Made by a program: the position numbers and the translations under genes
Shown here: piece by piece, positions 32,957 through 59,381 of the stretch
Layout: each line of letters starts with the position of its first letter
Numbering within the stretch: position 1 is the stretch's first letter
Notes under the pieces: model-generated
Seen by the model: the letters and a program-made list of their open reading frames with translations, nothing else
What the model was told of the DNA's origin: nothing
The model's database searches: none
Assembly (NCBI GenBank): GCA_027483175.1
Contig: JAIXVE010000058.1
Span: forward strand, 7,710 to 71,709
DNA: 64,000 bases
Direction of reading: 5' to 3'
From: Verrucomicrobiaceae bacterium
GTDB lineage: Bacteria > Verrucomicrobiota > Verrucomicrobiia > Verrucomicrobiales > V1-33

Positions 32957-33511
32957 GTGGTGGAAACGGCGCACGGCATTCTGATCCGGCGGACGCTGCT
33001 GACGGACACGAGTCTGATCGTGCACTGGCTGACGCGGGAGCAGGGGATTGTGCGGACGGCGGCGAGGGGGGCGAGGCGGCCGGGGAGTGTGTTCGGGGGG
33101 AAGCTGGATTTGTTTTATTCGGCGGACATTGCGTTTGTGCGGGGGCGGCGCGGGGACCTGCACGCGTTGCGGGAGGTTGGGGTGACGGCGTACCGGCAGG
33201 GGATTCAGGGATCGTATACGCGGGTGCTGTGTGCGGCGTATTTTGCGTCGCTGATTGATCTGGTGGTGGAGAAGGATGCGCCGGTGGGCGGGTTCCATGA
33301 TTTGCTGCGGCGTGGGCTTGACTGGCTGGAAGGGCATGAGCCGACGGCGGCAGCGGTGAGGTTTTACGAGAAGGAAGTGGCGGTGGAGCTGGGGATTCAC
33401 GGGGAGGCGGGCGTGGCTCCGGCGGACGCGATTCTGGGGATGTTTCACCGTTTGCCGGAGTCGCGCGCGGCGCTGATGAGGCGGCTGGGGGGAGGGGGAT
33501 TTGAGATTTGA
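32957..33511 (+). CDS. recO: DNA repair protein RecO
   Basis: About 184 aa from GTG 32957 (VVETAHGILIRRTLLTDTSLIVHWLTREQGIVRTAARGARRPGSVFGGKLDLF), the canonical RecO OB-fold N-terminus. The stop codon 33509-33511 lies inside a GATTTGA heptamer array. Confidence 0.8.
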   Translation: MVETAHGILIRRTLLTDTSLIVHWLTREQGIVRTAARGARRPGSVFGGKLDLFYSADIAFVRGRRGDLHALREVGVTAYRQGIQGSYTRVLCAAYFASLIDLVVEKDAPVGGFHDLLRRGLDWLEGHEPTAAAVRFYEKEVAVELGIHGEAGVAPADAILGMFHRLPESRAALMRRLGGGGFEI

Positions 33512-33525
33512 AATTTGAGATTTGA
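33498..33525 (+). repeat. heptamer array (GATTTGA GATTTGA AATTTGA GATTTGA)
   Basis: Four tandem 7-mers read directly from the sequence. TGA triplets at 33502, 33509, 33516 and 33523 fall in all three frames. The array contains the recO stop codon. Confidence 0.95.
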
Positions 33526-33741
33526 GAGGGGACAGGCAGGCGCACACTGGGCGCAGAGAAAGCTGTGATCTGACCTGAGACGAGAGCACGCCGGCGGGTT
33601 TTGGAGGGGGGCATTTTTTGGGTAGGTGTGCAGGCAGGGTTTTTGGGATTTGGGGGCGACGGGTTTGGGGTTGGGTGGTATCTGATGGGGACTGATTGGA
33701 TTGGGGATATGTGTGACCGAGCCAAAGGAATTAGTGAGGGG

Positions 33742-36237
33742 ATGGCCGCGCCTGATGGGCTGGTGCGGGGGGATTTCGTGGCTGTGAATTCCGGGGGCGA
33801 GGGTGCAGATTGCTGGAGGGTATGCTTTGGGGTGAGAGTGCTGGGTTTGGCGATGTTATTTGGATCTGGCGTTGCGAGTGAGGTGCGGGCGGCGGGGGAG
33901 GGTGGTTTTGGGGAACGGGTGCGGCCGTTTTTTGAGGAGTACTGTCTGAGTTGTCATGACGATGAGACGCAGGAAGGGGAGGTGTCTCTTGAGAGTCTCG
34001 GCGAGGTTTCTGCGGAGAATGCGGGGCTGTGGAAGCGCATCTGGGAGCAGGTGGCGTTGAAGGAGATGCCGCCGAGGAAGAAGACGAAGCAGCCGGAATT
34101 GACGGAGCGTCTGGAGTTGTCGAATTGGATTACGGCGGGGCTTGAGGGCGCGATGAGGGAGAAGGGTGGGTTTACCGAGCACCTGCGGCCGGGCAAAGGG
34201 AATCATCTGGATCATGATCTGCTATTCAAAGCTGAGCTGAAGCATCTGGAACCGGCGTCGACGCCGGCGCGGATCTGGAGGATTCATCCGCAGGAACAGA
34301 TGGTCCGCTTGAACGATCTGATTTGTCTGAAGCGCAAATACGACCCGGAGCGCCAGGGCCTTTGGACGCACGGCGATCACATTCCGTCGAATCTTGAAGG
34401 GGAGACGAAGGTGTATTTCGGATTGGATGGGTATCTGGGGAGTTTCAATGACGCCTACAACTCTGGCGTCGGCGGGTTTCAGTCGCCCTTGGCGATGGTG
34501 AGGGATCACGGACTGCGCAACTATCCGTTTCTATACTCGGTCAACAGTGCGGAGTCGCTCCAGATTGCGGGGATTGCGGAGAAGGTTCTGAGGTTCATGG
34601 CGAATGGGCCGAGGGCGGAGCCCTATCAGTTTGCGGACGATATCGAGAAGGTGCCTGGAGATTATCGGAATCTGAATATCATTTTTTACAAGAATGGCAT
34701 CTTCCGGCCGCTGACTCCGTTGTATGAACTGATGCAGACGCCCGGGGTCAGTGATGAACGCCTGACGGAGGTGATCCGTTTTCTGTTTGAGTCGCTGACG
34801 CTGCGACCGCCGAGTGCGGGGGAGACAGGGACTTACCTTGAGATCGTGAAGCGATCGATCAGTGAGCTTGGCAAAGAGGAAGGGGTTTTCCTTGGTCTGG
34901 TGCCGATTTTTCTGGATCGCGATGCGCTGTTCCGGCCTGAGCTTTGTGAGGGCGGGAAGCCTGACGAGCATGGTCGCGTGATGCTGCAGGGCGATGAACT
35001 GGCGCTGGCGATCAATGCTGCATTCTGCTACATCCGGCCGGAGGGTGATCACCTGCGCACGGCGCTTGCCGAGGGGCGGCTTACGACTCTCGAGGATGTG
35101 CGGCGTGAGGTGGTTCGAATCCTTGACGACGAGAGCATCCGGAAGCCGCGGATTCTACAGTTTTTCCGCGAGTATTTCGACTACGACCGTGCGGCGACGA
35201 TCTGCAAGACGAGAGAATCGATCGAGGGCAATGGGGCGCATTACGAGTCGCACCCGGCGGTGATCAACAGCATGATTGCGAATACGGATGGGCTGATTGA
35301 GTTGATTCTGCGCGAGGACAAGGATGTGCTGAAGGAATTGCTGACGACGGATCGCGTGATCTATCAGCCGTACACGTCGGTGCGGCTGCAGCGAGGGATG
35401 ACGACGGACATTGCCTACTTCATCAACCGGGGGAAAGCGTTCGTGCCTGTGAGGGTTTACGACAAGGCGCTTGTCGCGAAGGGGGATGAGGAGCGGGTGC
35501 AGCACGAAGTCACCAATGGGAATCAGCTGAACCACATTCTGCCGAATCCGGCCCGACCGATTTATGTGAGGCAGTCGCAGTTTGATAACGGGATTTTCCC
35601 GCCTGCGAAGGATGCGCTCAAGGCGATCACGACGGTGGATAGGAAGGAGAGAGTCGGGATTCTGACGCACCCGGTGTGGCTGGTGGCGCACTCGGACGCG
35701 ATGGAGAATCACGCGATTTCGCGGGGTCGGTGGGTTCGGGAGCGATTGCTTGGCGATGCGGTGCCTGACATTCCGATTACGGTGGATGCGAGGTTGCCGG
35801 ATGAACCGGATGCGACGCTACGGCACCGGATGCGGGTGACCCGGGAAAGCGAATGCTGGCGCTGTCACCAGAAGATGGATCCTCTGGGGCTGCCGTTTGA
35901 GATGTACAATCATCTGGGGATGCTGAGGGATCAGGATCACGGCAAGCCTGCGGACACGAGCGGCGAGATCGTTCTGAGCGGGGAACCGGCGTTGGATGGG
36001 CCGGTGAAGGATCCGTTGGAGATGATCTACAGGCTGGCTAACAGCGAGCGGGTGCAGCAGGTTTTTGTCCGGCATGCGTTCCGATTCTGGATGGGGCGCA
36101 ATGAAACGGTCAACGATGCGCCGATTATCCAGGCGGCGTGGAGGGCGTATCGGGATAATAACGGGAGTATGAAGGCGCTGTTGACGTCGTTGATGGCGTC
36201 GGATGCTTTTCTTTGGAGACGGGTGGGGGGAAAGTGA
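33742..36237 (+). CDS. DUF1592/DUF1588/DUF1585-type heme-binding (CxxCH) secreted protein
   Basis: An N-terminal CLSCHDDETQEGEVSLESL cytochrome-c-like motif follows a signal-like segment. The C-terminal region HPVWLVAHSDAMENHAISRGRWVRERLLG...CWRCHQKMDPLGLPFEMYNHLG is typical of this PVC-group family. The start is uncertain (33742 chosen; 33601-33853 possible). The stop lies inside a GTGAGAA array. Confidence 0.8.
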   Translation: MAAPDGLVRGDFVAVNSGGEGADCWRVCFGVRVLGLAMLFGSGVASEVRAAGEGGFGERVRPFFEEYCLSCHDDETQEGEVSLESLGEVSAENAGLWKRIWEQVALKEMPPRKKTKQPELTERLELSNWITAGLEGAMREKGGFTEHLRPGKGNHLDHDLLFKAELKHLEPASTPARIWRIHPQEQMVRLNDLICLKRKYDPERQGLWTHGDHIPSNLEGETKVYFGLDGYLGSFNDAYNSGVGGFQSPLAMVRDHGLRNYPFLYSVNSAESLQIAGIAEKVLRFMANGPRAEPYQFADDIEKVPGDYRNLNIIFYKNGIFRPLTPLYELMQTPGVSDERLTEVIRFLFESLTLRPPSAGETGTYLEIVKRSISELGKEEGVFLGLVPIFLDRDALFRPELCEGGKPDEHGRVMLQGDELALAINAAFCYIRPEGDHLRTALAEGRLTTLEDVRREVVRILDDESIRKPRILQFFREYFDYDRAATICKTRESIEGNGAHYESHPAVINSMIANTDGLIELILREDKDVLKELLTTDRVIYQPYTSVRLQRGMTTDIAYFINRGKAFVPVRVYDKALVAKGDEERVQHEVTNGNQLNHILPNPARPIYVRQSQFDNGIFPPAKDALKAITTVDRKERVGILTHPVWLVAHSDAMENHAISRGRWVRERLLGDAVPDIPITVDARLPDEPDATLRHRMRVTRESECWRCHQKMDPLGLPFEMYNHLGMLRDQDHGKPADTSGEIVLSGEPALDGPVKDPLEMIYRLANSERVQQVFVRHAFRFWMGRNETVNDAPIIQAAWRAYRDNNGSMKALLTSLMASDAFLWRRVGGK

Positions 36238-36261
36238 GAAGTGAGAAGTGAGAAGTTAGAA
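36234..36261 (+). repeat. heptamer array (GTGAGAA x3 + GTTAGAA)
   Basis: Four tandem 7-mers. TGA at 36235, 36242 and 36249 plus TAG at 36257 cover all three frames. The array contains the stop codon (36235-36237) of the upstream gene. A degenerate second copy (GAAGTGGGAAGTGAGAT) lies near 36284-36300. Confidence 0.95.
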
Positions 36262-36443
36262 AGGCTTGTTGGGAGAGGGTGCGGCGGGGAAGTGGGAAGT
36301 GAGATGGGGCGGGTTCGGAGGGGGAAGTGGGGAGGTGGCGGGAAGGATGACGGGATGAGCGGGTTGGGGTTCGGGAGATCTGATGGTTGTTTTCGGTTGA
36401 AGGGGGATGGGGCGAGGGGTTTCTTGTGGGTCAGAATGATCCG

Positions 36444-37262
36444 ATGAGTGCGAAAATCAGAAAGCTTCCCTTGGCAGGAACGGTGACCAGTGTTCCGATT
36501 GTGGGTCAATTGCGAGCGTACACCGTGTCGCTGACGGGGAGTTCGATGTTCTGGGTTTATGATTTTCTGACGGAAGGAAGGGTTTGCGACCGGAGCCTGT
36601 TTTCTCCTAAGCGATGGAAGAAGTTTTTCTATTATGACAGTGCCGGTTTTCCGGCCGATTGGGTGGATGAGGTGCAGATTGAATTGTCTGGTGCGGAGAG
36701 AAAAAGGCCGCCGACTTGGAAGAAGTGTTTTGACTCGCAGGTCGCGAATAAGGAGGTGCCCGCACCCTACCGGGTGACGACGTACGACTACGTGGAGTTT
36801 TACGTGGAGGAAGATCAGCTTCCGCAGTACCATGAATTTGTCTGGTTCAAGCACAAGGAACTGGTGGCGTATGTGAAGGCGAATTTGGGGCAATTTGAGA
36901 TCATCACGCCGAGGGAGGATCAGTTGGCTTCGCCGGTGGAGGCGCTGCCGGAGGTGGCGGTGTTCACGCGGGGGTGTGTTTATGAGATCTGGTTGTCGGG
37001 GTTAGAGCGGATGGAGTTGACCGAGGTGGAGGAGATTGGGGAGGAGATTGATGAGGAGCTTCAGGAGCACGAGGCGGGGGAAGTGATTGGGGTTGGCGGC
37101 ACGGATGAGGATCATCATAACATTGCGGTGCAGTGTGAGCCGGGGATGAACAAGAAGGCGCTGGGGTGCATTCGGACGGTGCTGAAGCGGTTGAAGGCGA
37201 ATCCTGAGACGACGGATATCTGGGTGCAGGGGGAGTCGGAGAAGAATTTAGGTTTGAGGTGA
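36444..37262 (+). CDS. hypothetical protein (no recognisable family) in a repeat-flanked, lower-GC segment
   Basis: About 272 aa from the internal ATG 36444 (MSAKIRKLPLAGTV...). The C-terminal third is acidic (EVEEIGEEIDEELQEHEAGE). It is flanked by GTGAGAA arrays at 36234 and 37276. Confidence 0.5.
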   Translation: MSAKIRKLPLAGTVTSVPIVGQLRAYTVSLTGSSMFWVYDFLTEGRVCDRSLFSPKRWKKFFYYDSAGFPADWVDEVQIELSGAERKRPPTWKKCFDSQVANKEVPAPYRVTTYDYVEFYVEEDQLPQYHEFVWFKHKELVAYVKANLGQFEIITPREDQLASPVEALPEVAVFTRGCVYEIWLSGLERMELTEVEEIGEEIDEELQEHEAGEVIGVGGTDEDHHNIAVQCEPGMNKKALGCIRTVLKRLKANPETTDIWVQGESEKNLGLR

Positions 37263-37275
37263 GGGGGTGGGGGAA

Positions 37276-37296
37276 GTGAGAAGTGAGAAGTGAGAA
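37276..37296 (+). repeat. heptamer array (GTGAGAA x3)
   Basis: Three perfect tandem 7-mers starting 14 nt after the stop codon at 37260-37262. Confidence 0.95.
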
Positions 37297-37500
37297 TGGC
37301 GTGTGGGGAGAGGCGCGAGTTCGGATGTGGGGCGTGGTGTTTCCCGCGGCGATGCCCCGGGAGAGGGTAGGGCGCCCTTTCAGGGCTTGGTGTGTGGTGG
37401 GTGAGACCCCGGGCGCTGCCCTGGGCTGCGTTAGGGCGCGCCGTTGGCGCTGGGGTGCCGGGCTTGGACGGAGAGAGGGCGCGAAGGGTGGTGGGGGCGA
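37297..37500 (+). repeat. GC-rich intergenic repeat module (truncated A-type head plus a second hairpin-rich module)
   Basis: It begins GGCGTGTGGGGAGAGGCGCGAGT, the same head as the copies at 14441, 37801 and 50785, and then diverges. Small triloop hairpins are GCCCT-TTC-AGGGC and GCGCC-GTT-GGCGC. Confidence 0.7.
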
Positions 37501-37528
37501 AATTGGAAATGGTAGATAGTGAATAGTA
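37501..37528 (+). repeat. heptamer array (AATTGGA AATGGTA GATAGTG AATAGTA)
   Basis: Four tandem, cytosine-free 7-mers of the AATAGTA class. Here they sit between two GC-rich modules rather than at a gene end. Confidence 0.85.
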
Positions 37529-37550
37529 AAATGCTGGATGGTGAAGGAGG

Positions 37551-38060
37551 GCGTTTGGGGAGAGCGCGAGTACAGAGTCTCGCGTGCCCGGGCTTGTTGG
37601 GAGGGCTGGCAGGCGCACTCCGTGTGTGGAGGGAGTGCGATTCCAGCGGCAGGCCAGGGCCTGCGGTTGCTGGTTTGGAGAGGGGCCGGCATCCCTCCGG
37701 GATGCGATGTTATTTGGTGTGTTTTCCGGTGGTCATCGCTCGTGGCCTCGCTCGACCACCGGCTACAAGCCGGCATCCCTACGGGATGCGAGGGGAGTGG
37801 GGCGTGTTGGGAGAGGCGCGAGTACATAGCCTCGCGTGCCCGGGCTTGTTGGGAGGGCTGGCAGGCGCACTTCGTTAGCGGAGGGAGTTGCGATTCCAAC
37901 GGCAGGCCAGGGCCTGCGGCTGCTGGCTCGGAGGGGGGCTTGAACGGAGAGGGGCCGGCACCCCTCCAGGGTGCGATGTTATTGGTTTGTTATCCGGTGG
38001 TCATCGCTCGTGGCCTCGCTCGACCATCTACAAGCCGACATCCCTCCGGGATGCGAACGG
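37551..38060 (+). repeat. tandem duplication of a ~250-bp composite hairpin-rich repeat unit
   Basis: Unit 1 spans 37551-37800 and unit 2 spans 37801-38060, and they align along their length. Unit 1 hairpins are CGCGAG-N8-CTCGCG (37565-37584), CGCACTCC-N10-GGAGTGCG (37614-37639), GCATCCC-TCC-GGGATGC (37689-37705), CCGGTGGTC-N19-GACCACCGG (37726-37762) and GCATCCC-TAC-GGGATGC (37773-37789). Confidence 0.9.
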
Positions 38061-38138
38061 AGTGAGCGTGTTCGGAGAGAGGGCGAGTGGGGAAGGAAAT
38101 TGGTGGCGGGGGGTGGGGTGGGGGGCGTAGGTTGTGGG

Positions 38139-39215
38139 ATGAGTATGTTGACCCGGATTCGGTTGAAGCGTCGGCGGTTGCTGAAGTGGCTTGGGGGGAC
38201 GGCGTTGGGTGGAGGGGTGATGGTGGTGGGGAGGGATGAGTGGTTGAGTGCTGGGCCTGGGTGGAAGGGGCCGGTGAGTGATCATTTTGACGGGCGGGTG
38301 TTTTTCAATCCGTGGGGGGCGTCGAAGAAATCGGGCGTGGATTTGTGGAAGTGGCGGTTTACGAGGAAGCCGGTGGCGTGGCCTTCGGAGGGTGGAGGGT
38401 TGGAGGAACCGGCGTTGGGGGCGGTGGTGGGGAGTGGGGGAGCGGCGGTGACGCTGGTGGGGCATGCGACGTGGCTGATTCAGGTGGGCGGGATGAATAT
38501 TCTGACGGATCCGGTGTGGTCGGAGCGGTGCAGTCCGGTGAGTTGGGCTGGGCCGAAGCGGGTGAGGCGACCGGCGATTGTGTTTGAGTCGCTGCCGAAG
38601 ATTGATGTGGTGTTGTTATCGCACAATCATTATGACCACCTTGATGTGGGGACGTTGAGGCGATTGCAGGAGCGGTGGATGCCGCGGGTGGTGACGGGGT
38701 TGGGGAATCGGGCGTTTCTGGAGGGGAAGGGGATGCCTGGGGCGGTGGAATTGGATTGGTGGGAGCGGCGGGAGGTTGGTGGGTTGGGGGTGACGTTCAC
38801 GCCGGCGCAGCATTGGTCGAATCGCGGGGGGAATGGGATGAATGCGACCTTGTGGGGCGGGTTTGTGGTGGAGGCTGGGGGGATGCGGATTTATTTTGCG
38901 GGGGACACGGGTTATGCGCCGTTTTTCGGGACGATTCGGGAGCGATGCGGGGCACCGGATCTGGCGTTGCTGCCGATCGGGGCGTATGAGCCGCGGTGGT
39001 TCATGGCGACGATGCACATGAATCCGGAGGAGGCGGTGCGGGCGCACGGGGAGCTGGGGGCGAAGCGGTCGTTAGGGATGCATTACGGGACGTGGCAGCT
39101 GACAGATGAGGGGATGGAGCAGCCGGTGACGGATCTGGCGGCGGCGCGTGCGGCGGCTGGGTTGAGCGAGGATGGGTTCGGGGCGGGGGTGTTCGGGCGG
39201 ACGGTGGTGGTGTGA
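38139..39215 (+). CDS. MBL-fold metallo-hydrolase (NAPE-PLD-like)
   Basis: The start is at ATG 38139 (MSMLTRIRLKRRRLLKWLGGTALGG, a Tat-like signal). Supporting segments are VTLVGHATWLIQVGGMNILTDPVW and the metal motif LLSHNHYDHLD. The upstream part of the track ORF reads through the repeat block and is rejected. Confidence 0.8.
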   Translation: MSMLTRIRLKRRRLLKWLGGTALGGGVMVVGRDEWLSAGPGWKGPVSDHFDGRVFFNPWGASKKSGVDLWKWRFTRKPVAWPSEGGGLEEPALGAVVGSGGAAVTLVGHATWLIQVGGMNILTDPVWSERCSPVSWAGPKRVRRPAIVFESLPKIDVVLLSHNHYDHLDVGTLRRLQERWMPRVVTGLGNRAFLEGKGMPGAVELDWWERREVGGLGVTFTPAQHWSNRGGNGMNATLWGGFVVEAGGMRIYFAGDTGYAPFFGTIRERCGAPDLALLPIGAYEPRWFMATMHMNPEEAVRAHGELGAKRSLGMHYGTWQLTDEGMEQPVTDLAAARAAAGLSEDGFGAGVFGRTVVV

Positions 39216-39233
39216 AGAAAATGGTATCCTGAG

Positions 39234-40583: not shown

Positions 40584-40602
40584 GCCGGGAGCGGGCGATC
40601 GG

Positions 40603-41616: not shown

Positions 41617-41618
41617 AA
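41601..41618. promoter_or_regulatory. perfect CRP/FNR-type palindrome TTGTGAAA-TT-TTTCACAA (core TGTGA-N6-TCACA)
   Basis: Read directly at 41601-41618. The arms TTGTGAAA and TTTCACAA are exact reverse complements. The site overlaps the candidate ispB start codons and faces the divergent Lon-N gene. Confidence 0.35.
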
Positions 41619-41781
41619 GCGATGTGTAGTTGGGTGAAAGGTGGGTGTCAACGAGGGGGTTGCAGGGAGGATACGTCTGCGGCAAGACGTGGGACGTGAT
41701 TGGGCATCCGCGGGGAGGCTGGGGAGCGTTTCCTGATCTGCCTTGTTACCGTATTTTCCTGTGGTGAGCCTTCCTGAAGTT

Positions 41782-42351: not shown

Positions 42352-42360
42352 AGGGCGGGC

Positions 42361-43143
42361 ATGAGACCCGAGAAGAATGAGATGATGTGGCGGCCGATGC
42401 GGTTGTGCGAGGCGCATGATGCGGGGAAGTACGAGGCGCGGTGGTTGCGCGTGGCGAGGGCGGCGCGGATGGAGGTGAGGGAGCTGGGGACGGGCGAGGG
42501 CGGGCGAGTGTTGTGCCTTGAGGGGAGGGGTGCGGGCGGGCCGGGGTTGTATTTATCATCGGGGGTGCATGGGGATGAGGCGGCGGCGGCGGCGGGATTG
42601 CTGTTGTGGGCGGAGGCGCGGATTGATTACCTGAGGCGGCAGGCGGTGACGGTGGTGCCGGTGTTCAATCCTGCGGGGTTGCGGATGAACACGCGGCTGG
42701 ACGGGGAGGGCCGGGATTTGAACCGGATGTTTCATTTGAGGGAGGATCCGCTGATGGGGTCGTGGTGGCGGGTGGTGGAAGGGCGGCGTTACGGGGCGGC
42801 GGTGTGCCTGCACGAGGATTACGATGCGGAGGGATGTTATTGTTATGAGCTGAACGAGGACGCGGGGTTGAGGCTGGCGGATCGGTTGCTGGGGTCGGTG
42901 GAGGAATGGGTGCCGCGGGATGGGAGGAGGACGATTGACGGGCGGCGGGCGGATCGCGGGGTGATTCAGCGGCGGCGGGTGCCGGCATTGCCCGGGTTGC
43001 CGGAGGCGGTGGCGCTGTATCGGGCGGGGGTTCCGGTGACCCTGACATTCGAGACCCCGTCGGAGATGGAGTTTGAGCGTCGGGTGCGGGCGCATGCGGC
43101 GTTTGTGGAGGCGGCGGCGGGGGAAATTGAGAATTTAAAATAG
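42361..43143 (+). CDS. M14-family zinc metallopeptidase (succinylglutamate desuccinylase/carboxypeptidase-like)
   Basis: 260 aa. The HxxE zinc motif is in SGVHGDEAAA. NPAGLRMNTR and DLNRMF are present, and the third ligand context is CLHEDYDAEG. The stop codon 43141-43143 lies inside an AATAGTA-class array. Confidence 0.7.
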   Translation: MRPEKNEMMWRPMRLCEAHDAGKYEARWLRVARAARMEVRELGTGEGGRVLCLEGRGAGGPGLYLSSGVHGDEAAAAAGLLLWAEARIDYLRRQAVTVVPVFNPAGLRMNTRLDGEGRDLNRMFHLREDPLMGSWWRVVEGRRYGAAVCLHEDYDAEGCYCYELNEDAGLRLADRLLGSVEEWVPRDGRRTIDGRRADRGVIQRRRVPALPGLPEAVALYRAGVPVTLTFETPSEMEFERRVRAHAAFVEAAAGEIENLK

Positions 43144-43204
43144 TAAATAGTAAAAGGGGCTGGTGGGAGGGTTGGAAATAGTGAATAGTAAATGGTAAAT
43201 AGTA
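43125..43204 (+). repeat. two AATAGTA-class heptamer arrays, each followed by GGGGCTGGTGGG(A/G)
   Basis: Array 1 at 43125-43152 reads AATTGAG AATTTAA AATAGTA AATAGTA. Array 2 at 43177-43204 reads AATAGTG AATAGTA AATGGTA AATAGTA. Both are followed by GGGGCTGGTGGG, so the array plus its G-rich tail forms a duplicated unit. Confidence 0.9.
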
Positions 43205-43330
43205 AGAGGGGGCTGGTGGGGAGAGGAGATGGGGGACCGCGGATTTTGTGAATGGGCGGGGTGTGGGGGGGACGGGGTAAAGGGGTGACAAGGGGCTTGA
43301 TTTCGGGGAGTGGACCCGTTTTAAGGGGGG

Positions 43331-44017: not shown

Positions 44018-44182
44018 GGGCCTCTGGTGGGCGAGATGGAGGCGGGTGGGGGCGTCCCTCGGGTTTGACAGCCTGAAATCACGCGATTAAGGACCGCCCG
44101 AATGAAGTCCCCCGGAGGCTGGCGTGATGTCGGCGGCTGGGGGGATTCGTCCCCCAAAATTCGAGCATTTACCTGACCATCT

Positions 44183-45430: not shown

Positions 45431-45538
45431 GTTGATGCCGCGCGGAGATTCCTGGGGTCGTTGTGGGATTTCTGTGGCGGCGGGTTGGCGGAGTGGGTTA
45501 GAGTGGGAAGTGCCTTGAATTGATTCGGGCGCTGACTG

Positions 45539-47035
45539 GTGATGACGCGTGTAGTTTTGAGAACGATGGTTTCGCTGCTGGTGACGGTGGCGGGTGCGCG
45601 TGCGGGGACTGGTGGGGAGGCGGGTGTTTTCAGTCGTCAGCCGTATCTGCAATTGGCGACGCCGACGACGGTGACGGTGGTGTGGCGGACGCGGGTGGCG
45701 ATGCAGGGGGAGTTGAGGGTTAGGGAGAAGGGTGGGGACGGAGTTGTGAGGTTGCCGGTGGAGAAGATGACGGTGAGGCGGCTGGTGGAGGATGGGGAAT
45801 CGAGTGCGGGGGCGAGGGCGCTGCATTCAGCGCCGCCGGGGACGTGGCAGTACGAGGCGACGGTGAGCGGGTTGAAGCCGGATACGGCGTATGGTTATGA
45901 GATTGTGGATGGGGGGAAAGTGGTGACGCCTGCGGATGGGAGTTGTGTGCTGCGGACGCATCCTGAGGTTGGGGCGGTGAGGCCGTTTTCGTTCTGGGTG
46001 GTGGGGGACAGCGGGACGGGGAGTGAGAGTCAGAAGGGCGTGTATGAGTCGTTCAAGGCCTGGCGTGCGAAGGCGAAGCGGGACGTGGATTTTTATGTGC
46101 ATGTGGGGGACATGGCGTACAAGAACGGGAGGGACGCGGAGTTTCAGTTCGGGTTTTTCGGGGTTTATGCGGAGACCTTGAGGGGATTGACGTGCTGGCC
46201 GGCGATGGGGAATCACGAAGGGCGCACGTCGAGCGGGAGGAGCGGGGTGGGGCCGTATTACGATGCGTATGTGACGCCGACGCGGGGTGAGGCGGGAGGG
46301 TTGGCGAGCGGGACGGAGGCTTATTATTCGTGGGATTACGGGCGGACGCATTTTGTGTGTCTGGACACGTATGACCTGGCGGTGACGGCGGATGGGGCGA
46401 TGTCGCAGTGGCTGAAGGCGGACCTTGAGAAGACGAAGGCGGAGTGGGTGATCGCGTACTGGCATCATCCGCCGTACACGAAGGGGTCGCATGATTCGGA
46501 TGGTGAGCTGGATCTGACGGAGGTGCGGGAGCATCTGATGCCGATCATTGAGTCGGGCGGGGTGGATCTGGTGCTGGCGGGGCACAGTCATGTTTATGAG
46601 CGGTCGTTTCTGCTGAACGGGGCGTATGCGACGCCGACGGTGGCGGCGAACGTGGTGCTGGATGACGGGACGGGTGATCCGTTGAAGGGAGGCCCGTATC
46701 ACAAAGTGCCGGGGTTGGTGCCGAACAGCGGGACGGTGCAGATTGTGGCTGGGAATGGCGGGCAGGTGCTGCAGCGGAGGCATTATCCGAGTCCGGTGAT
46801 GTGGAAGACGATTACGGAATGGGGGTCTGTGCTGGTGGATGTGGATGGGCGGACGCTGACGGCGACGATGCTGGATGTGCATGGGAAAGTGCGGGACACC
46901 GTGCAGATTGTGAAGGATGCGAAGGCGGTGGCGGGGAGGATTTCTGAACCAAAGCCTCCGGGGGAACCTGAGGGGCCGTATGAGTTGAAGAGTCGGGTGG
47001 TGGTGCCGGGGGCGGAGGGGTTGGGCGGCCCGTGA
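45539..47035 (+). CDS. purple-acid-phosphatase-like metallophosphoesterase (paralog 1)
   Basis: 498 aa with a signal peptide. Metallophosphoesterase motifs are GDSG, GDMAY, GNHE and GHSHVYER, and WHHPPYTKGSHDSD is present. Confidence 0.85.
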   Translation: MMTRVVLRTMVSLLVTVAGARAGTGGEAGVFSRQPYLQLATPTTVTVVWRTRVAMQGELRVREKGGDGVVRLPVEKMTVRRLVEDGESSAGARALHSAPPGTWQYEATVSGLKPDTAYGYEIVDGGKVVTPADGSCVLRTHPEVGAVRPFSFWVVGDSGTGSESQKGVYESFKAWRAKAKRDVDFYVHVGDMAYKNGRDAEFQFGFFGVYAETLRGLTCWPAMGNHEGRTSSGRSGVGPYYDAYVTPTRGEAGGLASGTEAYYSWDYGRTHFVCLDTYDLAVTADGAMSQWLKADLEKTKAEWVIAYWHHPPYTKGSHDSDGELDLTEVREHLMPIIESGGVDLVLAGHSHVYERSFLLNGAYATPTVAANVVLDDGTGDPLKGGPYHKVPGLVPNSGTVQIVAGNGGQVLQRRHYPSPVMWKTITEWGSVLVDVDGRTLTATMLDVHGKVRDTVQIVKDAKAVAGRISEPKPPGEPEGPYELKSRVVVPGAEGLGGP

Positions 47036-47154
47036 CGGGAGAGTGGGCGGGATGGGAGGAATTCCGCGAATTTGGGCGGATTTTCTGTGGCGTGGGTGGG
47101 GGCGCGGTCGTTGGTTGGGTGAGGGTCTGGAATTCAACCGGGCGCTGACACTGC

Positions 47155-48648
47155 ATGACACGTATTCTTCTCAGTTCTGTTGTTTCGCTGCTGCTGACGG
47201 TGGCGGTGAGTCCTGCGCAGTCGGGTGATTCTGGCGGGGTGTTCAGTCGGCAGCCGTATTTGCAGATGGCGACGCCGACGACGGTGACGATTGTGTGGCG
47301 GACGCGGGTGGCGATGGTGCCGGAGGTGAGGGTTGGCTTGAAGAGTGGTGCGTCGGTGGTGAAGGTGCCGGCGGAGAAGATGACGGTGCGGCGGCTGGCG
47401 GGGGATGGGGGATCGAGTGCGGGGGCGAAGGTGCTGCATTCTGCGCCTGCGGGGACGTGGCAGTATGAGGCGACGGTGAGCGGGCTGAAGCCTGACACGA
47501 AGTATGTGTATGAGATTCTGGATGGCGGGAAAGTGGTGACGCCTGCGGATGGGAGTTGTGTGCTGCAGACGAACCCTGAGCCGGGGGCGGCGCGGCCGTT
47601 TTCGTTCTGGGTGGTGGGGGACAGCGGGACGGGGAGTGACAGTCAGAAGGCGGTGCACAATTCGTTCAAGGCGTGGCGTGCGAAGGCTAAGAAGGACGTG
47701 GATTTTTATGTGCATGTAGGGGACATGGCTTACAATTTCGGGCGGGACGCGGAGTTTCAGTTCGGGTTTTTCGAGGTGTATGCGGACACACTGCGCGGGC
47801 TGACGTGCTGGCCGGCGATGGGAAATCACGAGGGGAACACGTCGAATGGGAGCACAGGGGTGGGGCCGTATTACGATGCTTATGTGACGCCAGCGAAGGG
47901 TGAGGCCGGGGGATTGGCTAGTGGGACGGAGGCGTATTATTCGTGGGATTATGCGAGGACGCATTTTGTGTGTCTGGATTCGCATGATCTGCCGCGGAAG
48001 GCGGACGGGGCGATGGCGCAGTGGCTGAAGGCGGATCTGGAGAAGACGAAGGCGGATTGGGTGATCGCGTACTGGCATCATCCGCCGTACACGAAGGGGT
48101 CGCATGATTCGGACAAGGAGAAGGATTTGATAGAGGTGCGGGAACATCTGCTGCCGATCATTGAGGCGGGCGGGGTGGATCTGGTGCTGACGGGGCACAG
48201 CCATGTTTACGAGCGGTCGTTTCTGCTGAACGGGGCGTACGGGACGCCGACGGTGGCTGCGAACGGTGTGCTGGATGACGGGCCGGGCGATCCGTTCAAG
48301 GGTGGGCCCTATCACAAGATGCCGGGATTGGTGGCGAATAGCGGGACGGTGCAGATTGTGGCGGGCCATGGCGGGCAGGCGCTGTCGCGGAAGGAGCATC
48401 CGAGTCCGGTGATGTGGAAGACGATCACGGAATGGGGATCGGTGCTGGTGAATGTGAATGGCCGGACCCTGACGGCGATGATGCTGGATGCGGATGGTAA
48501 GGAGCGGGACACGGTGCAGATTGTGAAGGACGCGAAGGCGGTGCCGGGGAAGATTGCGGCGCCGAAGCCTCCAGGGGTGCCGGAGGGGCCATTGAAGATG
48601 AAGAGTCGAGTGGTGGTTCCTGGAGCGACGGTGCCTGACAAACCGTGA
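47155..48648 (+). CDS. purple-acid-phosphatase-like metallophosphoesterase (paralog 2, tandem duplicate)
   Basis: 497 aa, colinear with paralog 1 over its whole length and roughly four-fifths identical by eye. The same metal motifs are present. The upstream leader is also similar (GGGCGCTGAC...ATGAC(G/A)CGT). Confidence 0.85.
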   Translation: MTRILLSSVVSLLLTVAVSPAQSGDSGGVFSRQPYLQMATPTTVTIVWRTRVAMVPEVRVGLKSGASVVKVPAEKMTVRRLAGDGGSSAGAKVLHSAPAGTWQYEATVSGLKPDTKYVYEILDGGKVVTPADGSCVLQTNPEPGAARPFSFWVVGDSGTGSDSQKAVHNSFKAWRAKAKKDVDFYVHVGDMAYNFGRDAEFQFGFFEVYADTLRGLTCWPAMGNHEGNTSNGSTGVGPYYDAYVTPAKGEAGGLASGTEAYYSWDYARTHFVCLDSHDLPRKADGAMAQWLKADLEKTKADWVIAYWHHPPYTKGSHDSDKEKDLIEVREHLLPIIEAGGVDLVLTGHSHVYERSFLLNGAYGTPTVAANGVLDDGPGDPFKGGPYHKMPGLVANSGTVQIVAGHGGQALSRKEHPSPVMWKTITEWGSVLVNVNGRTLTAMMLDADGKERDTVQIVKDAKAVPGKIAAPKPPGVPEGPLKMKSRVVVPGATVPDKP

Positions 48649-48649
48649 C

Positions 48650-49594
48650 ATGAGAGAGGTGCGCGGGTTGCTGGTGGCGGGGATGGTGGTGCTGCTGAGT
48701 GCTGCGGGGGAGTTGCGGGCGGATCCCGGGCATGAGGTGAGCATTGCGGAGTTGAGTGCGCAGATTGAGAAGACCCCGGAGATTCCGGAATTGTACTATC
48801 AGCGGGCGGTGAATTACCGGGAGATCGGGAAGGTTGCGGAGGCGCGGGCGGATTTTGCGAAGGCGCTGATGCTGGGACCGGGGTTTCTGCCGGCGGGGAG
48901 GGAGCTGGCGCGGATGGATGCGGAGGCGGGGAAGCGTGCGGAGGGGATCGAGCGGCTGAAGAAGCTGTTAGCGGGGGCTCCGGCGGAGGCGGCGTTTCAT
49001 GTGCCGGGCTGCTGTGCGGCGCTGGCGGATTTGTTATTGAAGGAAGGTCGGAACGAGGAAGCGCTGGCGGCGGCGGCGAAGGGGATTGAGGCGTCGGAGG
49101 AGATCAGCATAGATCTGTACCTGTTCCGTGCGGAGGCGCAGCGGCGGCTGGGGAAGCATGAGGATCGGGTGCGGGATCTGGCGGAGGCGGCGGGGAAGCT
49201 GAAGAGCATTGTGCTGAGGATCGCGTGGATCGAGGCGCTGATCGATGCGGGGCGGACGGCGGAGGTGCTGCCGGAGATCGAGGCGGAGATTGCGACGTGC
49301 CGGTTTCAGGCGGCGTGGCGGATTCGGCGGGCGCGGGCGCTGCTGAAGGTGCCACGAAAGGAGGAGGCGATGGAGGAACTGGCGAAGGCGCTGGTGGAGA
49401 TTGAGGGCCGGCTGAGGCCGGAGCGGCCGGATCTGACTTTGTTGTGCGAGCGGGCGCTGATCTATGCGCTGACGGGGCGTCGGGCGGAGGCGGAGGCGGG
49501 CCTAGCGGAGGCGCGGGAGCGCGGGGCGGACGGGTGGATGACGCGGAATCTGGAGGCGGTGCTGGGGAAATTAAGAATTGAAAATAGTAAATAG
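48650..49594 (+). CDS. TPR-repeat protein with signal peptide
   Basis: 314 aa with TPR-like helices (YYQRAVNYREIGKVAEARADFAKALMLGPGF..). It starts 2 nt after the upstream stop. Its stop codon 49592-49594 lies inside an AATAGTA-class array. Confidence 0.7.
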   Translation: MREVRGLLVAGMVVLLSAAGELRADPGHEVSIAELSAQIEKTPEIPELYYQRAVNYREIGKVAEARADFAKALMLGPGFLPAGRELARMDAEAGKRAEGIERLKKLLAGAPAEAAFHVPGCCAALADLLLKEGRNEEALAAAAKGIEASEEISIDLYLFRAEAQRRLGKHEDRVRDLAEAAGKLKSIVLRIAWIEALIDAGRTAEVLPEIEAEIATCRFQAAWRIRRARALLKVPRKEEAMEELAKALVEIEGRLRPERPDLTLLCERALIYALTGRRAEAEAGLAEARERGADGWMTRNLEAVLGKLRIENSK

Positions 49595-49596
49595 TA
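49569..49596 (+). repeat. heptamer array (AATTAAG AATTGAA AATAGTA AATAGTA)
   Basis: Four tandem cytosine-free 7-mers. Stops at 49572, 49579, 49585, 49588, 49592 and 49595 cover all three frames. Confidence 0.9.
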
Positions 49597-49765
49597 AATT
49601 TGGGACGGTGAGGTGGGCGTGTGGGAGCGGCTTGTTGGGAGGGGTGGGGCTGATGCGGAGGCGCGAAGGATGGCTAGTGGGGAGGGGCGGGCCGCGCGCA
49701 CTCTGTGCGCTCCGAGAGCTGTGATTCTCCAAGCAGGGCAGAGCCTGCGGCGGGCTTGTTCGGAG
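49597..49765 (+). repeat. GC-rich intergenic repeat module (copy E)
   Basis: It contains GCGCAC-TCT-GTGCGC (49696-49710), followed by GAGAGCTGTGATTCTCCAAGCAGGGCAGAGCCTGCGGCGGGC. It aligns with 14517-14564 and 50859-50905. Confidence 0.85.
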
Positions 49766-49958
49766 GGTGCGTGTTGGTTCATGGCTGCGCTTGTGCGAGA
49801 GGGTGAACTGTGTTCTCACTTTACTCATGAGTTGCTCGTGGGTCTTCGATGTCGGAGATGGGGGTCGTTACCGCTCTCATTGACCCGCCGTCGATTTCGC
49901 GGTAAACTCGTTATCCGTTAATGTTGAGACTGCCAAGGTCGAGCAGAAAGAAATCGTT

Positions 49959-50312
49959 ATGAGATGCCTGATTGTGATGCTTTTGTGGATGGGGGCGAAT
50001 CGATGTCTGAGCGAAGCGGGAGCTAAAGCCAATTCCAGATTGAATTCCGAGGGTGAGGCGGCGGCGAGAGCTGAAGCTGATGAAAAAATGTTCGCGTCAT
50101 GGATTGAAGAGGTGGAGGAAGGAGGAATGCGACTAGTGCATCCGATCGGGGAATTGGGGCTGGAGCTTCTGAAGGGCGGGCAGGAGCCTGGTGAGGCGGA
50201 GGTCAATGGAGTGGGGGTGCTTTCGTTCGTCGAGAGTGAGTCCGTTACGGCGAGCGACGAGAGTCTTCGATATCTGATCAAGCTGCTGAAGTCGGACAAT
50301 CTTGGGGTTTGA
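49959..50312 (+). CDS. hypothetical small protein (weak call)
   Basis: 117-aa ORF in a lower-GC segment. A competing 140-aa ORF lies on the opposite strand (49877-50299). The plus strand is preferred only because its stop overlaps the next plus-strand ORF. Confidence 0.3.
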   Translation: MRCLIVMLLWMGANRCLSEAGAKANSRLNSEGEAAARAEADEKMFASWIEEVEEGGMRLVHPIGELGLELLKGGQEPGEAEVNGVGVLSFVESESVTASDESLRYLIKLLKSDNLGV

Positions 50313-50326
50313 GTTATTGTCTGTTT

Positions 50327-50755
50327 ATGAGAACGTTGATCTGGTTGTTTCCGATGCTGCTGCTTGCGTCAGGCTGCAGGAATGTCGAGCCGGCGCGGAA
50401 TTGTGCGGTGTATCAGTATCGCCACCACGTTGGTGATCCATTTTCTGGCAGAGAGGGCGTTGATGAATTGCGTCAGTGTGGCGAGGTTCCGGTTCCGGGT
50501 GGGTTGTTGGCGTCGATGAGTCAGCTCGAACCGCTGAGGGTAAGCACGTCTGCTGATTGGTTGTGGATTGTTCTGCTGAGTCCGAGTGAGTGTCTCGTTT
50601 TGTGCTCGGATAGGGTTTCGCTGCGGAAAGGCAAATACAGGATGGAGGGCGGAGGGGTGGTGGTAGATGGGGATTTAATGTTTTTCAGGGACGCGAGGGT
50701 TGCCGGTGAGATGTTTGATATTCTGGCGAGGTCGGGAATTGTGAAGGAGAAGTAG
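50327..50755 (+). CDS. hypothetical lipoprotein
   Basis: About 142 aa from ATG 50327: MRTLIWLFPMLLLASGC|RNV, a good lipobox. No family recognised. It lies in a lower-GC segment. Confidence 0.45.
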   Translation: MRTLIWLFPMLLLASGCRNVEPARNCAVYQYRHHVGDPFSGREGVDELRQCGEVPVPGGLLASMSQLEPLRVSTSADWLWIVLLSPSECLVLCSDRVSLRKGKYRMEGGGVVVDGDLMFFRDARVAGEMFDILARSGIVKEK

Positions 50756-50770
50756 GGCGATTTGTTTGTG

Positions 50771-50907
50771 GGAAGGTGGGCTTGATCGGAGAGGCGCGAG
50801 TACGGAGCCTCGCGTGCCCGGGATTGAACGGAGAGTGGGCCGCGCGCACTCCGTGCGCCCTGAGAGCTGTGATTCTCCCAGCAGTCCAGAGCCTGCGGCG
50901 CGCTGGG
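50771..50907 (+). repeat. GC-rich intergenic repeat module (copy F)
   Basis: About 120 nt aligns with 14441-14564. Elements are CGCGAG-N8-CTCGCG (50795-50814), GCGCAC-TCC-GTGCGC (50844-50858) and GAGAGCTGTGATTCTCCCAGCAGTCCAGAGCCTGCGGC. Confidence 0.9.
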
Positions 50908-50935
50908 GATTTGAGATTTGAAATTTGAGATTTGA
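50908..50935 (+). repeat. heptamer array (GATTTGA GATTTGA AATTTGA GATTTGA)
   Basis: With its flanks, the 33-nt string GGGGATTTGAGATTTGAAATTTGAGATTTGAGA (50905-50937) is identical to 33495-33527. Confidence 0.95.
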
Positions 50936-51034
50936 GATGGGCTGGTTTTGAGGGGACGAGGCTCGTGGGGAGGGGGTAGAATGGGGGTGTTGAAGGAAAT
51001 TGACGGGTGGGGTGTGGCTTGCCATGGTGGGGGG

Positions 51035-52168
51035 ATGAAGAACATGACCTTTGTTGCGCTGATGACGACGATTGCGGTGGCGGGAGCTGCGGAGCATCGG
51101 ATTTATGTGGGGACGTACACGGCGAAGGGGAGCAAGACGGAGGGGGTGGGGTTGCTGACGTTTGATGATGTGAGTGGGGTGTTGAAGTCGGGGGGGACGG
51201 CGGCGGTGTCGGACAATCCATCGTTTGTGGCGGTGAGTTCGGATGGGAAGTTTGTGTATGCGGTGAACGAGGGGCCGTCGGCGGCGACGGCGTTTGCGGT
51301 GGATGGGGCGACTGGGAAGCTGAAGCAGTTGAGTCAGGTGCCGGTGGGGGAGAAGGGGGCGCAGGGGCCGTGTCATTTGTGTCTGGTGGAGGCGGAGGGG
51401 ATCCTGGTGACGGCGAATTACGGTGGTGGGAGTGTGTCGACGTTTGCGGTGGGGGAGGATGGGGGATTGGAGTCGCGCACTGGGTTTATCCAGCATGTGG
51501 GGGGTGGGCCGGACAAAGGGCGGCAGGAGTCGCCGCATGCGCACGGGGCGGTGCTATCGCCTGATGGGAAGCATGTGCTGGTGAACGATCTGGGGACGGA
51601 CCGGGTGTATATTTATGCGGTGGATTCGTTTGGGAGGAAGCTGGCGGAGAAGCCGATTGGCGAGGGCGTGATCAATCCCGGGGCGGGGCCGCGTCACGGG
51701 GTGTTTTCGCCGGACGGGAAGGTGTTTTACTGTTTGAATGAGATGGCGTGCACGGTGACGCCGATGGCGTGGGATGGGGAGGCGAAGACCCTGACGGCGG
51801 GGAAGCCGGTGCGGACGCTGGAGGGCGAGCATCAAGGGAATTCGACGGCGGAGATTGCGGTGCATCCGGGTGGGAAGTGGGTGTTTGCGTCGAATCGCGG
51901 GCATGACAGCATTGCGGTGTTTGCGGCGGAGGGAGGGGCGGTGACGTTGAAGGGGACGGTGCCTTGCGGTGGGAAGGTGCCGCGGAGTTTCACGCTGTCG
52001 CCGGATGGGAAGTGGCTGCTGGCGGCGCATCAGGAGTCGAACAGCGTGCAGGTGTTTTCGTTTGATGCGGCGAGTGGGGAGTTGAAGGCGAAGGGTGGGC
52101 CGGTGAAGACGACTTGCGGGAAGCCGGTGAGCCTTGTGTTTGCGCCGAGGGCGGGAAGTGAGAAGTGA
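51035..52168 (+). CDS. lactonase-family 7-bladed beta-propeller protein (6-phosphogluconolactonase-like)
   Basis: The start is at ATG 51035 (MKNMTFVALMTTIAVAGA signal). Supporting segments are RIYVGTYT, NPSFVAVSSDGKFVYAVNE, ANYGGGSVS, HAHGAVLSPDGKHVLVNDLGTDRV and ASNRGHDSIAVF. The stop lies inside a GTGAGAA array. Confidence 0.8.
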   Translation: MKNMTFVALMTTIAVAGAAEHRIYVGTYTAKGSKTEGVGLLTFDDVSGVLKSGGTAAVSDNPSFVAVSSDGKFVYAVNEGPSAATAFAVDGATGKLKQLSQVPVGEKGAQGPCHLCLVEAEGILVTANYGGGSVSTFAVGEDGGLESRTGFIQHVGGGPDKGRQESPHAHGAVLSPDGKHVLVNDLGTDRVYIYAVDSFGRKLAEKPIGEGVINPGAGPRHGVFSPDGKVFYCLNEMACTVTPMAWDGEAKTLTAGKPVRTLEGEHQGNSTAEIAVHPGGKWVFASNRGHDSIAVFAAEGGAVTLKGTVPCGGKVPRSFTLSPDGKWLLAAHQESNSVQVFSFDAASGELKAKGGPVKTTCGKPVSLVFAPRAGSEK

Positions 52169-52199
52169 GAAGTGAGAAGTGAGAAGTGAGAAGTGGGAA
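52158..52199 (+). repeat. heptamer array (GTGAGAA x5 + GTGGGAA)
   Basis: Six tandem 7-mers, the longest array in the window. It contains the stop codon 52166-52168. Confidence 0.95.
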
Positions 52200-52250
52200 G
52201 GAGGTGGAGGCAGGAGGCAGGACGTGGAGAGGCGAGAGAACGGGATTGAA

Positions 52251-55933: not shown

Positions 55934-55941
55934 GGGAAGAG

Positions 55942-59148: not shown

Positions 59149-59319
59149 GGCGCGTCGAATGGTGGAGACTGTTGGTTTTGAGGATGAAACTAATGGTGAG
59201 ACGATGCAAATGGCAAGACTAGCGGTGGGTTGCGTGGGAGTGGTGGTGGGGTGTGGGGTTGGGATTTGAGGGTGGCGGGGGGAAAGCGGGCTTGCGCTGG
59301 GCGTGGGTTGTGCTTAAAT

Positions 59320-59336
59320 TTGTAGCCTTGACTACA
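59320..59336. promoter_or_regulatory. candidate operator TTGTA-N7-CTACA upstream of the permease-repressor fusion gene
   Basis: TTGTAGCCTTGACTACA contains the inverted repeat TGTAG..CTACA. It lies 46 nt upstream of ATG 59382 and matches the pattern at 52251-52267. Confidence 0.3.
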
Positions 59337-59381
59337 GGGCGACGACAACTGGAAAAGCTGAGGTGGCGAGGGCTGCCGGGG

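Follow-up and report, generated by a model that had tools for sequence, protein, structure and literature searches.

Tandem heptamer arrays at gene ends of a strand-biased Verrucomicrobiota genome as probable modules of an intergenic mosaic

Between 33 and 52 kb of a 64,000-nt stretch from a Verrucomicrobiaceae bacterium (contig JAIXVE010000058.1), nine tandem arrays of C-free 7-nt units occur, and several of them contain the stop codon of the gene upstream. The whole stretch is referred to as the window, and array coordinates refer to it. The locus raises the question of whether such arrays are a device for ending translation or came to lie at gene ends for other reasons. According to our analysis, the supply of stop codons is more probably a tolerated by-product than the work of a purpose-built stop device. 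In the explanation that we favor, and that we regard as probable but by no means secure, the arrays are heptanucleotide simple-sequence repeats that form one module of a strand-polarized intergenic mosaic. This mosaic resembles the bacterial interspersed mosaic elements (BIMEs); the arrays in it are filtered by mutation bias and are found at stop codons mainly by survivorship. The host is known from a metagenome-assembled genome, in which the window is part of a 90,768-bp contig, and belongs to an uncultured freshwater lineage of the Verrucomicrobiota. Many lake metagenomes contain close relatives, the longest contigs cited here measuring 2.64 and 3.35 Mb.

Arrays and stop codons in the window

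Tandem Repeats Finder (TRF) together with an exact period-7 scan located arrays at 33498-33527, 36232-36261, 37273-37296, 43138-43154, 43176-43205, 49582-49599, 50908-50938 and 52155-52200, with 2.4-6.6 tandem 7-nt units each. A ninth, at 37501-37528, is visible in the sequence but degenerate and was not called by TRF. The nine arrays named in a preliminary description of this DNA, which had been made from the sequence alone, therefore all exist. Each of them lacks C and carries at least one stop codon in every forward frame, as had been claimed, and all nine lie in spacers or overlap just the final codons of an open reading frame (ORF). The further claim that the reverse complements are free of stops has to be given up, since the arrays at 36232, 43125 and 49569 each carry one reverse-strand TAA. 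Five of the nine arrays contain the stop codon of the upstream gene, in agreement with the preliminary description. The ORFs concerned end at 33511, 36237, 43143, 49594 and 52168 and encode RecO, a PSCyt/PSD protein (DUF1588/1585/1592), an AstE/M14-type peptidase, a TPR protein and a 7-bladed lactonase, respectively.

All arrays were assigned to the plus strand and to three classes, which are variants of one family with the core NNTGARW. The GATTTGA class is represented by the array at 33498-33527 (4.3 units, the third of which is AATTTGA), which holds the recO stop at 33509-33511, and by an identical copy at 50908-50938. The latter lies 152 nt beyond the stop of a small ORF and ~90 nt ahead of the lactonase start. 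The 33-nt string at 33495 equals that at 50905, with one mismatch when the comparison is extended to 37 nt (repeat family D10). In their flanks the two copies have only GGGG before the array in common, besides GAGA within its end, and no flanking inverted repeats were found in the sequence read. To the GAAGTGA class belong the arrays at 36232-36261 (4.3 units, PSCyt/PSD stop at 36235-36237) and 52155-52200 (6.6 units, lactonase stop at 52166-52168). A third member at 37273-37296, built of 3.4 perfect units, follows the stop (37260-37262) of ORF 36387-37262. This adjacency had been recognized before, with a distance of 14 nt for an array start at 37276; from the start at 37273 it is 10 nt.

The AATAGTA class includes the element at 43125-43154 (AAATTGA GAATTTA AAATAGT AAATAGT), which encodes the tail GEIENLK of the peptidase and holds its stop at 43141-43143. 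A second array is found in the same spacer at 43177-43205. The element at 49569-49599 holds the stop of the TPR protein (49592-49594) and encodes its tail GKLRIENSK. The degenerate heptad run at 37501-37528 is also of this class; it is followed by a linker and by module A (see below) and shows 76% identity to the copy at 43117 (family D6). GAATTGA, a unit within these AATAGTA arrays, is the commonest unit elsewhere.

In the window, the gaps from array to next start codon are 73, 125, 674, 125, 9 and 76 nt. The units contain isolated Gs only, G-tracts being confined to the flanking linkers, and the array RNA is predicted to be unstructured (fold of 0 kcal/mol). The arrays did not qualify as intrinsic terminators in a terminator scan. 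An Rfam scan of the window gave no family at gathering score, and a tRNA scan of the window found none. Two single units had been described as relics of the arrays. The one at 14426 is credible, being a lone GATTTGA between a G-run and a linker motif. The one at 59263 is unconvincing: it is a single GATTTGA located just within ORF 59253-60755 and shares only G-runs with the arrays.

Composition, orientation and comparison with known repeats

In ~300 kb of the lineage we counted 63 period-7 arrays of at least three copies, 58 of them AT-rich, versus 2 in composition-matched first-order Markov shuffles. Periods 4, 5, 8 and 10-12 were at background, while 6 and 9 showed a slight excess. The arrays are thus far commoner than in the shuffles and are not a chance product. 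Nor are they confined to this region.

Their makeup is a different matter. The plus strand of the window contains 44.4% G and 19.4% C, and the GC skew ranges from +0.33 to +0.49 in every 2-kb segment, whatever the gene strand. At codon position 3, G and C account for 66% and 11%, respectively, in plus-strand genes and for 11% and 72% in minus-strand genes. The bias extends to amino-acid usage, with Gly, Val and Glu enriched in plus-strand proteins and Pro, Ser and Ile in minus-strand proteins. The same extreme strand bias is found in L001, L127-L136 and L257-L262 (L numbers are labels of retrieved relative loci; L001 is a contig 92% identical to the window). The skew is just ~0.15 in the relatives L002-L006, with 69% protein identity. 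To our knowledge, the strand bias of the host genome goes well beyond that of other bacteria, and at the title and abstract level the literature yielded nothing on extreme skew in freshwater Verrucomicrobia.

Because the plus strand has 44% G and 19% C, C-free heptamers are common on it: the probability that a 7-mer is C-free is 0.22, that it is G-free only 0.016. Among C-free heptamers with up to three Gs, 76% hold TGA, TAG or TAA once repeated. With a period of 7, each unit is shifted in frame relative to the one before, and stops therefore appear in all three frames. Reverse-strand stops are nearly absent because a C-free unit has a G-free complement, which is able to make TAA alone. A random frame on the plus strand meets ~1 stop per 29 codons, as calculated from the base composition. 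Since there are just 3-4 independent unit families, the stop content of the arrays is not significantly above expectation. Most of their apparent design follows from composition and arithmetic.

The orientation of the arrays was analyzed in a sample of 61 non-redundant AT-rich period-7 arrays, taken from the window and from high-skew loci retrieved by the module-B pattern. In all gene configurations the arrays follow the G-rich strand, on which 58 of the 61 are C-free; the remaining 3 are mixed, and not a single one is flipped. It is thus the strand bias, and not transcription, that sets the orientation. Of the earlier hypothesis that the arrays are gene-end elements, the association with the 3' ends of co-oriented genes stands, while an orientation set by transcription does not. 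Both neighbors could be called for 41 arrays. Eight of these have a minus-strand upstream neighbor, yet none is flipped, and minus-strand genes make up 42% of the coding DNA. The 41 spacers divide into 22 +/+, 11 +/-, 4 -/+ and 4 -/- cases, compared with 16.5, 8.6, 7.2 and 8.6 expected from spacer lengths (p = 0.09). An enrichment after co-oriented genes across spacer types is thus only suggestive. In a related contig (L137, 1-12735) we noted a moderate skew that switches sign near 6 kb, possibly at an origin or terminus. This contig has a 1902-aa ORF with several G-free heptamer arrays, i.e. arrays in the translatable orientation inside an ORF.

A scan of species-representative genomes with the pattern GAWKTGA GAWKTGA RAWKTGA returned at least 120 stretches (L007-L126) from more than 10 phyla, including Acidobacteriota, Planctomycetota, Verrucomicrobiota, Bacteroidota, Cyanobacteria, Gemmatimonadota, Chloroflexota and the candidate phyla radiation (CPR). 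The chance expectation for the entire collection is ~35 matches. Among the matches listed, nearly all extend as perfect (GAGAATT)n, (GAGATTT)n, (GAGAAGT)n or (GAGATGT)n. With heuristic ORFs, these listed matches fall into 34 +/+, 25 -/-, 18 +/- and 5 -/+ spacers, and 33 lie inside reverse-strand ORFs; 25 of the 61 listed arrays that follow a co-oriented ORF hold its stop (~40%). The listed matches show no polarity with local GC skew (57 vs 68) and occur in both orientations relative to genes. The 120 listed loci (857 kb) contain 281 period-7 arrays, as opposed to no more than 29 at each of the other periods between 5 and 10. At least two period-7 arrays are present in 63 of the 120 listed 8-kb stretches, with many different units. 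The variety of heptamer units in array-bearing genomes points to a general heptamer-repeat process and not to one sequence motif.

Among simple repeats with units of 5-11 nt, heptanucleotides are reported to predominate in most prokaryotic genomes, possibly owing to polymerase slippage (Mrazek et al. 2007, as summarized in PMC4679880 and PMC4692102). The preliminary description knew of no described element with the architecture of the arrays. This view cannot be upheld: heptanucleotide repeats are a described class, and overlap with stop codons has been published for TAACTGA and GGGAATC repeats (PMC4679880, PMC4692102). The arrays are to be counted among these known simple-sequence repeats, and their unit sequences GAAGTGA, GATTTGA and AATAGTA/GAATTGA are new. 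A literature search for the exact array strings gave nothing relevant.

TAACTGA repeats were found in marine Beggiatoaceae, Cyanobacteria and Bacteroidetes (MacGregor 2015, PMC4679880). They close the three forward frames, can overlap ORF ends by up to 18 nt, show 7-nt indels between strains and have a suspected role in rearrangement (PMC4679880). Like them, the arrays described here close three forward frames while the reverse strand stays translatable (0-1 reverse stops here). The 7-nt indels and the overlap with upstream ORF ends are also alike, and the units GAAGTGA and GAATTGA share the pattern xAAxTGA with TAACTGA. Unit sequence and host phylum differ. Furthermore, most TAACTGA sets in a Beggiatoaceae genome end one to a few nt ahead of a start codon (PMC4679880), whereas the arrays here abut the upstream stop.

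The repeats GGGAATC and GGGGAYT of Xanthomonas and Nostoc are quadruplex-forming, abundant in intergenic regions and about equally frequent on both strands (Rehm et al. 2015, PMC4692102). In Xanthomonas, GGGAATC repeats crowd and overlap stop codons (PMC4692102), although on our own inspection the unit contains no stop triplet. Abundant intergenic arrays, scarcity between divergent genes and length variation between related species are shared with the arrays of the lineage studied here. In contrast to the G-tracts and G-quadruplexes of these repeats, the arrays have isolated Gs, a predicted lack of structure and stop triplets, and a single polarity instead of the use of both strands. Long simple-sequence repeats (LSSRs) and short tandemly repeated repetitive (STRR) heptamers, including those of heterocystous cyanobacteria, likewise consist of intergenic 7-nt tandem units with a period-7 excess and 7-nt copy-number steps between strains. 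The arrays differ from them by the hairpin-module mosaic and by the strict single-strand polarity tied to extreme GC skew.

The repetitive extragenic palindromes (REPs) and BIMEs of enterobacteria are mosaics of short, partly hairpin-forming modules, which occur in variable order at gene 3' ends and between cistrons. A mosaic of spacer modules in variable order, with hairpin members, is also present here. The modules alternate in REP/BIME sequences but keep one orientation here, and the arrays are not palindromic. HutP is a ring protein that reads (G/U)AG triplets spaced every 7 nt. The GAG or TAG that recurs every 7 nt in the units resembles this spacing, but unlike HutP or TRAP sites the arrays follow genes and are not placed in attenuator leaders. 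The core of integron attC sites was ruled out on sequence (GTTRRRY vs GTTAGAA). The A-R-N motifs of CsrA and Hfq were ruled out because a period of 7 breaks the triplet register.

The intergenic mosaic and orthologous gene ends

In the lineage, the arrays are flanked by a G-run on the 5' side and by the G-rich linker GCKTGTKGGGAGRG on the 3' side. They alternate with C-containing hairpin modules, of which module A is GCGCGAGTACRKAGYCTCGCGTGCC and module B ends in CAGCAGTCCAGAGCCTGCGGC. The mosaic thus reads G-run, AT-rich heptamer array, G-rich linker and GC hairpin modules. It also contains the terminator-like hairpin GCATCCCTCCGGGATGC; in the terminator scan, the GCATCCC...GGGATGC hairpins, which have T-rich tails behind them, were among the sites resembling intrinsic terminators. 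Modules A, B and C contain inverted repeats, and the folding energies of modules A and B are no better than those of shuffles. Every copy of a linker or module has the same orientation. A 21-mer of module B is also found in related lineages of little skew.

The order of the modules varies, with the array ahead of them at 33498 and 49569 and behind them at 50908. One slot can hold arrays of different classes: module B is followed by GATTTGA at position 50905 of the window and by GAAGTGA in L091. A counterpart of the 37273 array in L063 has near-identical flanks and ends a different gene. The canonical 31-mer GATTTGAGATTTGAAATTTGAGATTTGAGAT (~4.4 units) is present at no fewer than eight distinct loci, usually in the arrangement module B - array - linker, and was therefore copied and not regrown each time. 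This 31-mer includes the A variant in unit 3. The strings at 33495 and 50905 are indeed copies of one element, as previously proposed, and not independent slippage products.

Four mosaics of the window, all on the plus strand, illustrate this composition. The mosaic at 14420-14650 consists of the single GATTTGA, the linker GGCTTGTGGGGAGAGG, hairpin module A, module B and repeated linkers (families D2, D3, D7 and D15) and continues to 14850. At 37540-37943, continuing to 37975, two tandem copies comprise linker, module A, linker, a module B-like piece and the hairpin GCATCCCTCCGGGATGC. A linker and module B (family D2) lie at 49620-49774, immediately 3' of the 49569 array, and linker, module A and module B (families D2 and D3) at 50770-50907, immediately 5' of the 50908 array. 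Three roles had been suggested for the arrays; judged by the repeat families and the mosaic, that of a part of a dispersed intergenic element fits best.

Two segments next to mosaics deserve mention. At 49800-50760 a low-GC islet between two mosaics contains two small ORFs with signal-peptide or lipoprotein-like N-termini. The same slot is occupied by a PhdYeFM antitoxin in L257-L259 and by PQQ-repeat proteins in the L128 clade, which makes it a variable spot. ORF 36387-37262 (291 aa) is of lower GC content (codon-position GC 0.57/0.38/0.69) and has no Pfam match. The gene table of L127 lists no gene in the shorter, 0.77-kb spacer that appears to correspond to it. The ORF is possibly an accessory gene inserted among the repeat mosaics.

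A comparison of orthologous gene ends in relatives, which the preliminary description had called for, revealed arrays at the same ends, copy-number steps of 7 nt and a class swap at recO. Whole-unit differences in copy number were observed at the lactonase, recO and DUF1592-type ends (window, L001, L127, L257, L259 and L260). At the lactonase end, every genotype has an array at the stop, with shorter arrays in the relatives and variable array-encoded tails (RAGSEK, KTEGK, KTEKK, KK and KLGSEK). All 6 genotypes included for the DUF1592-type end have an array there, built of differing unit variants. At the peptidase stop every relative has heptad sequence, in some of them only ~2 units of it. 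The recO end has a GAAGTGA array and linkers in L127, L257, L259 and L260; in the window it has a G-run, the GATTTGA array and a module-B-like piece. Conserved flanks enclose these different spacers, and the whole cassette was therefore exchanged.

The end of the TPR gene exists in several forms. An array-free allele (...AGAGSGGGR followed by the stop) is found in the L128 and L133 clades, and in L128 an array is located 456 nt downstream of the TPR end. In other clades the gene is fused to the array at two different junctions, with the C-termini ...GKLKIENSK and ...AGAGEKLKIENGK directly before the stop. The TPR alignment (A2) is consistent with a ~460-nt deletion between GCGGGGG microhomologies. 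These sequences fit an event, here called stop capture, in which a deletion would have removed the native stop and the array would have provided a new one.

Explanations for the arrays and neighboring features

Based on these data we propose the following origin of the arrays. They would grow by replication slippage and spread by recombination or copying among mosaics, with composition and orientation imposed by the extreme strand-specific mutation bias of the lineage. A flipped, C-containing array would seldom arise and would decay fast. A stop-bearing tandem heptamer closes three frames in 21 nt and might be the sole spacer module that can run up to or into a co-oriented ORF at its 3' end without doing harm. 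An indel that fuses an ORF to an array would merely change the last few residues of the protein and provide it with another stop, i.e. lead to stop capture. The association with stop codons would then be mainly a matter of survivorship and not the mark of a selected stop pad.

Several observations weigh against this proposal. Plus-strand genes precede 38 arrays; the stop of the gene is inside the array in 13 of these cases and no more than 20 nt away in another 7 (20/38). Where an array faces a minus-strand gene at its 3' end (24 cases), the distance to the stop of that gene always exceeds 20 nt. Close contact with co-oriented stops is real, and it exceeds the prediction of simple tolerance. 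Moreover, five gene ends retain their arrays across 5-7 genotypes, and the canonical 31-mer is unchanged at its eight or more loci, though slippage should scramble it. All three observations could result from selection for a role at the level of RNA. In addition, the loci of the lineage were selected via a repeat module that often adjoins arrays, the metagenome samples are partly redundant, and the gene calls in the retrieved loci are heuristic (ORF and third-position GC).

The contact with stops, the persistence at gene ends, the conserved 31-mer, the lack of predicted structure and a TGA/TAG-containing core shared by the classes and by TAACTGA (PMC4679880) speak for an element acting at the RNA level, which we consider unlikely but worth serious attention. 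In the very G-rich mRNAs of plus-strand genes, no sequence could be less structured than a C-free, G-poor and A/U-rich array. At the stop codon or directly behind it, such an array could keep downstream G-quadruplex-prone linkers and GC hairpins off the terminating ribosome, or could offer a single-stranded platform to a protein or RNase. Ribosome stalling induced by REP sequences is a comparable case, and GA|UUU resembles the RNase E consensus. The platform could be read by S1, Hfq, RNase E or a ring protein that, like HutP, recognizes (G/U)AG every 7 nt. However, many plus-strand genes of the same operons do without an array and have G-rich sequence directly after the stop (FabF, both metallophosphatases, 3-keto hydrolase). 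In several spacers 3-4 arrays follow one another, or the distance from an array to the nearest stop exceeds 100 nt (L158, L243), class and copy number vary freely between relatives, and array-bearing genomes hold many different heptamer units. The broader claim that (GAWKTGA)n-type arrays, with the core NNTGARW and related to TAACTGA, constitute a widespread unrecognized functional element at the boundary of translation termination and 3'-UTR, e.g. a structure-free landing zone or a platform for RNA-binding factors, appears rather improbable to us. If it held, slippage and tolerance would account for only part of the picture.

A selected three-frame stop pad, which was among the roles suggested earlier, would terminate translation whatever the frame, in a genome poor in stop triplets, and guard against read-through and frameshifted ribosomes. 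The closure of three frames by all nine window arrays, the working stops in five of them and in 13 of the 38 arrays of the lineage sample, and the scarcity of stops in random plus-strand frames agree with it. Nevertheless, such a role is not required and fits several facts poorly, and we think it improbable. Three quarters of comparable heptamers (the 76% given above) hold a stop anyway, and the unit families are few. Arrays beside minus-strand genes give no sense-strand stops and none is flipped for these genes, in line with an orientation that follows strand bias; several arrays per spacer would be redundant; the Xanthomonas GGGAATC repeats crowd stops with no stop triplet of their own (unit inspection; PMC4692102); and the listed matches in other phyla show both orientations relative to genes. 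The arrays do supply a working stop to many genes all the same. Equally doubtful is the idea that the arrays form the end of a mobile element transposing as single-stranded DNA at replication forks, in the manner of REPs with their REP-associated tyrosine transposases (RAYTs) or of IS200/IS605, which would fix the orientation and target gene ends. Transposons of this kind are biased in orientation with replication, and the strict single orientation of arrays and all mosaic modules, the dispersed near-identical copies and the cassette replacement at orthologous sites would suit them. Mutation bias explains the orientation equally well, however. No transposase, such as the RAYT cognate to REP/BIME sequences, was seen among the scanned window ORFs, and no terminal inverted repeats or target duplications, as expected of transposons or miniature inverted-repeat transposable elements (MITEs), were seen around the arrays. 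The copies have just G-runs and linkers in common beyond the array, and the module order is variable. Finally, by analogy with Chi or with FtsK-orienting polar sequences (KOPS), the arrays might be a replichore-polar DNA signal, either an oriented site for a chromosome-handling protein or a site of priming or unwinding. Complete co-orientation with the G-rich strand and the fact that three units make 21 bp, arithmetically two helical turns, would be compatible with this idea. We judge it very improbable, given that arrays cluster in some spacers and were not found by TRF at 1-33 kb or 53-64 kb of the window, that they have at least three different unit sequences and unconstrained copy number, and that the same kind of array lacks skew polarity in other phyla among the matches listed.

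For annotation, the results mean that fast-changing arrays provide the last codons and stops of many genes of this lineage, and apparently also of genes in many phyla. The differences that close strains show in their C-terminal tails and gene ends therefore have no functional reason. With regard to genome evolution, the TPR alleles are a concrete case of a repeat that acts as a safety net, allowing deletions to extend into a gene from its 3' side. The strand bias of the host is the more unusual result, and it visibly dictates which repeats can exist. Should the arrays prove to function, a very common and unexplained class of repeats would become experimentally tractable.

Two further features of the window were noted. 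The ORFs 45539-47035 and 47155-48648 are tandem paralogous metallophosphatase genes with ~72% DNA identity over 300 nt (family D1). Behind each gene lies a conserved spacer with the end sequence ...GGGCGCTGAC. After the first gene there is also, at 47063, a hairpin that is conserved and terminator-like. A 5.2-kb segment at 54027-59278 is missing from L001, in which 54027 is joined directly to 59278; the difference is an indel between close relatives. The segment contains two minus-strand genes (ORFs 54515-55933 and 55942-59148), and the orthologous gene in L127 and L260 matches DUF1501.

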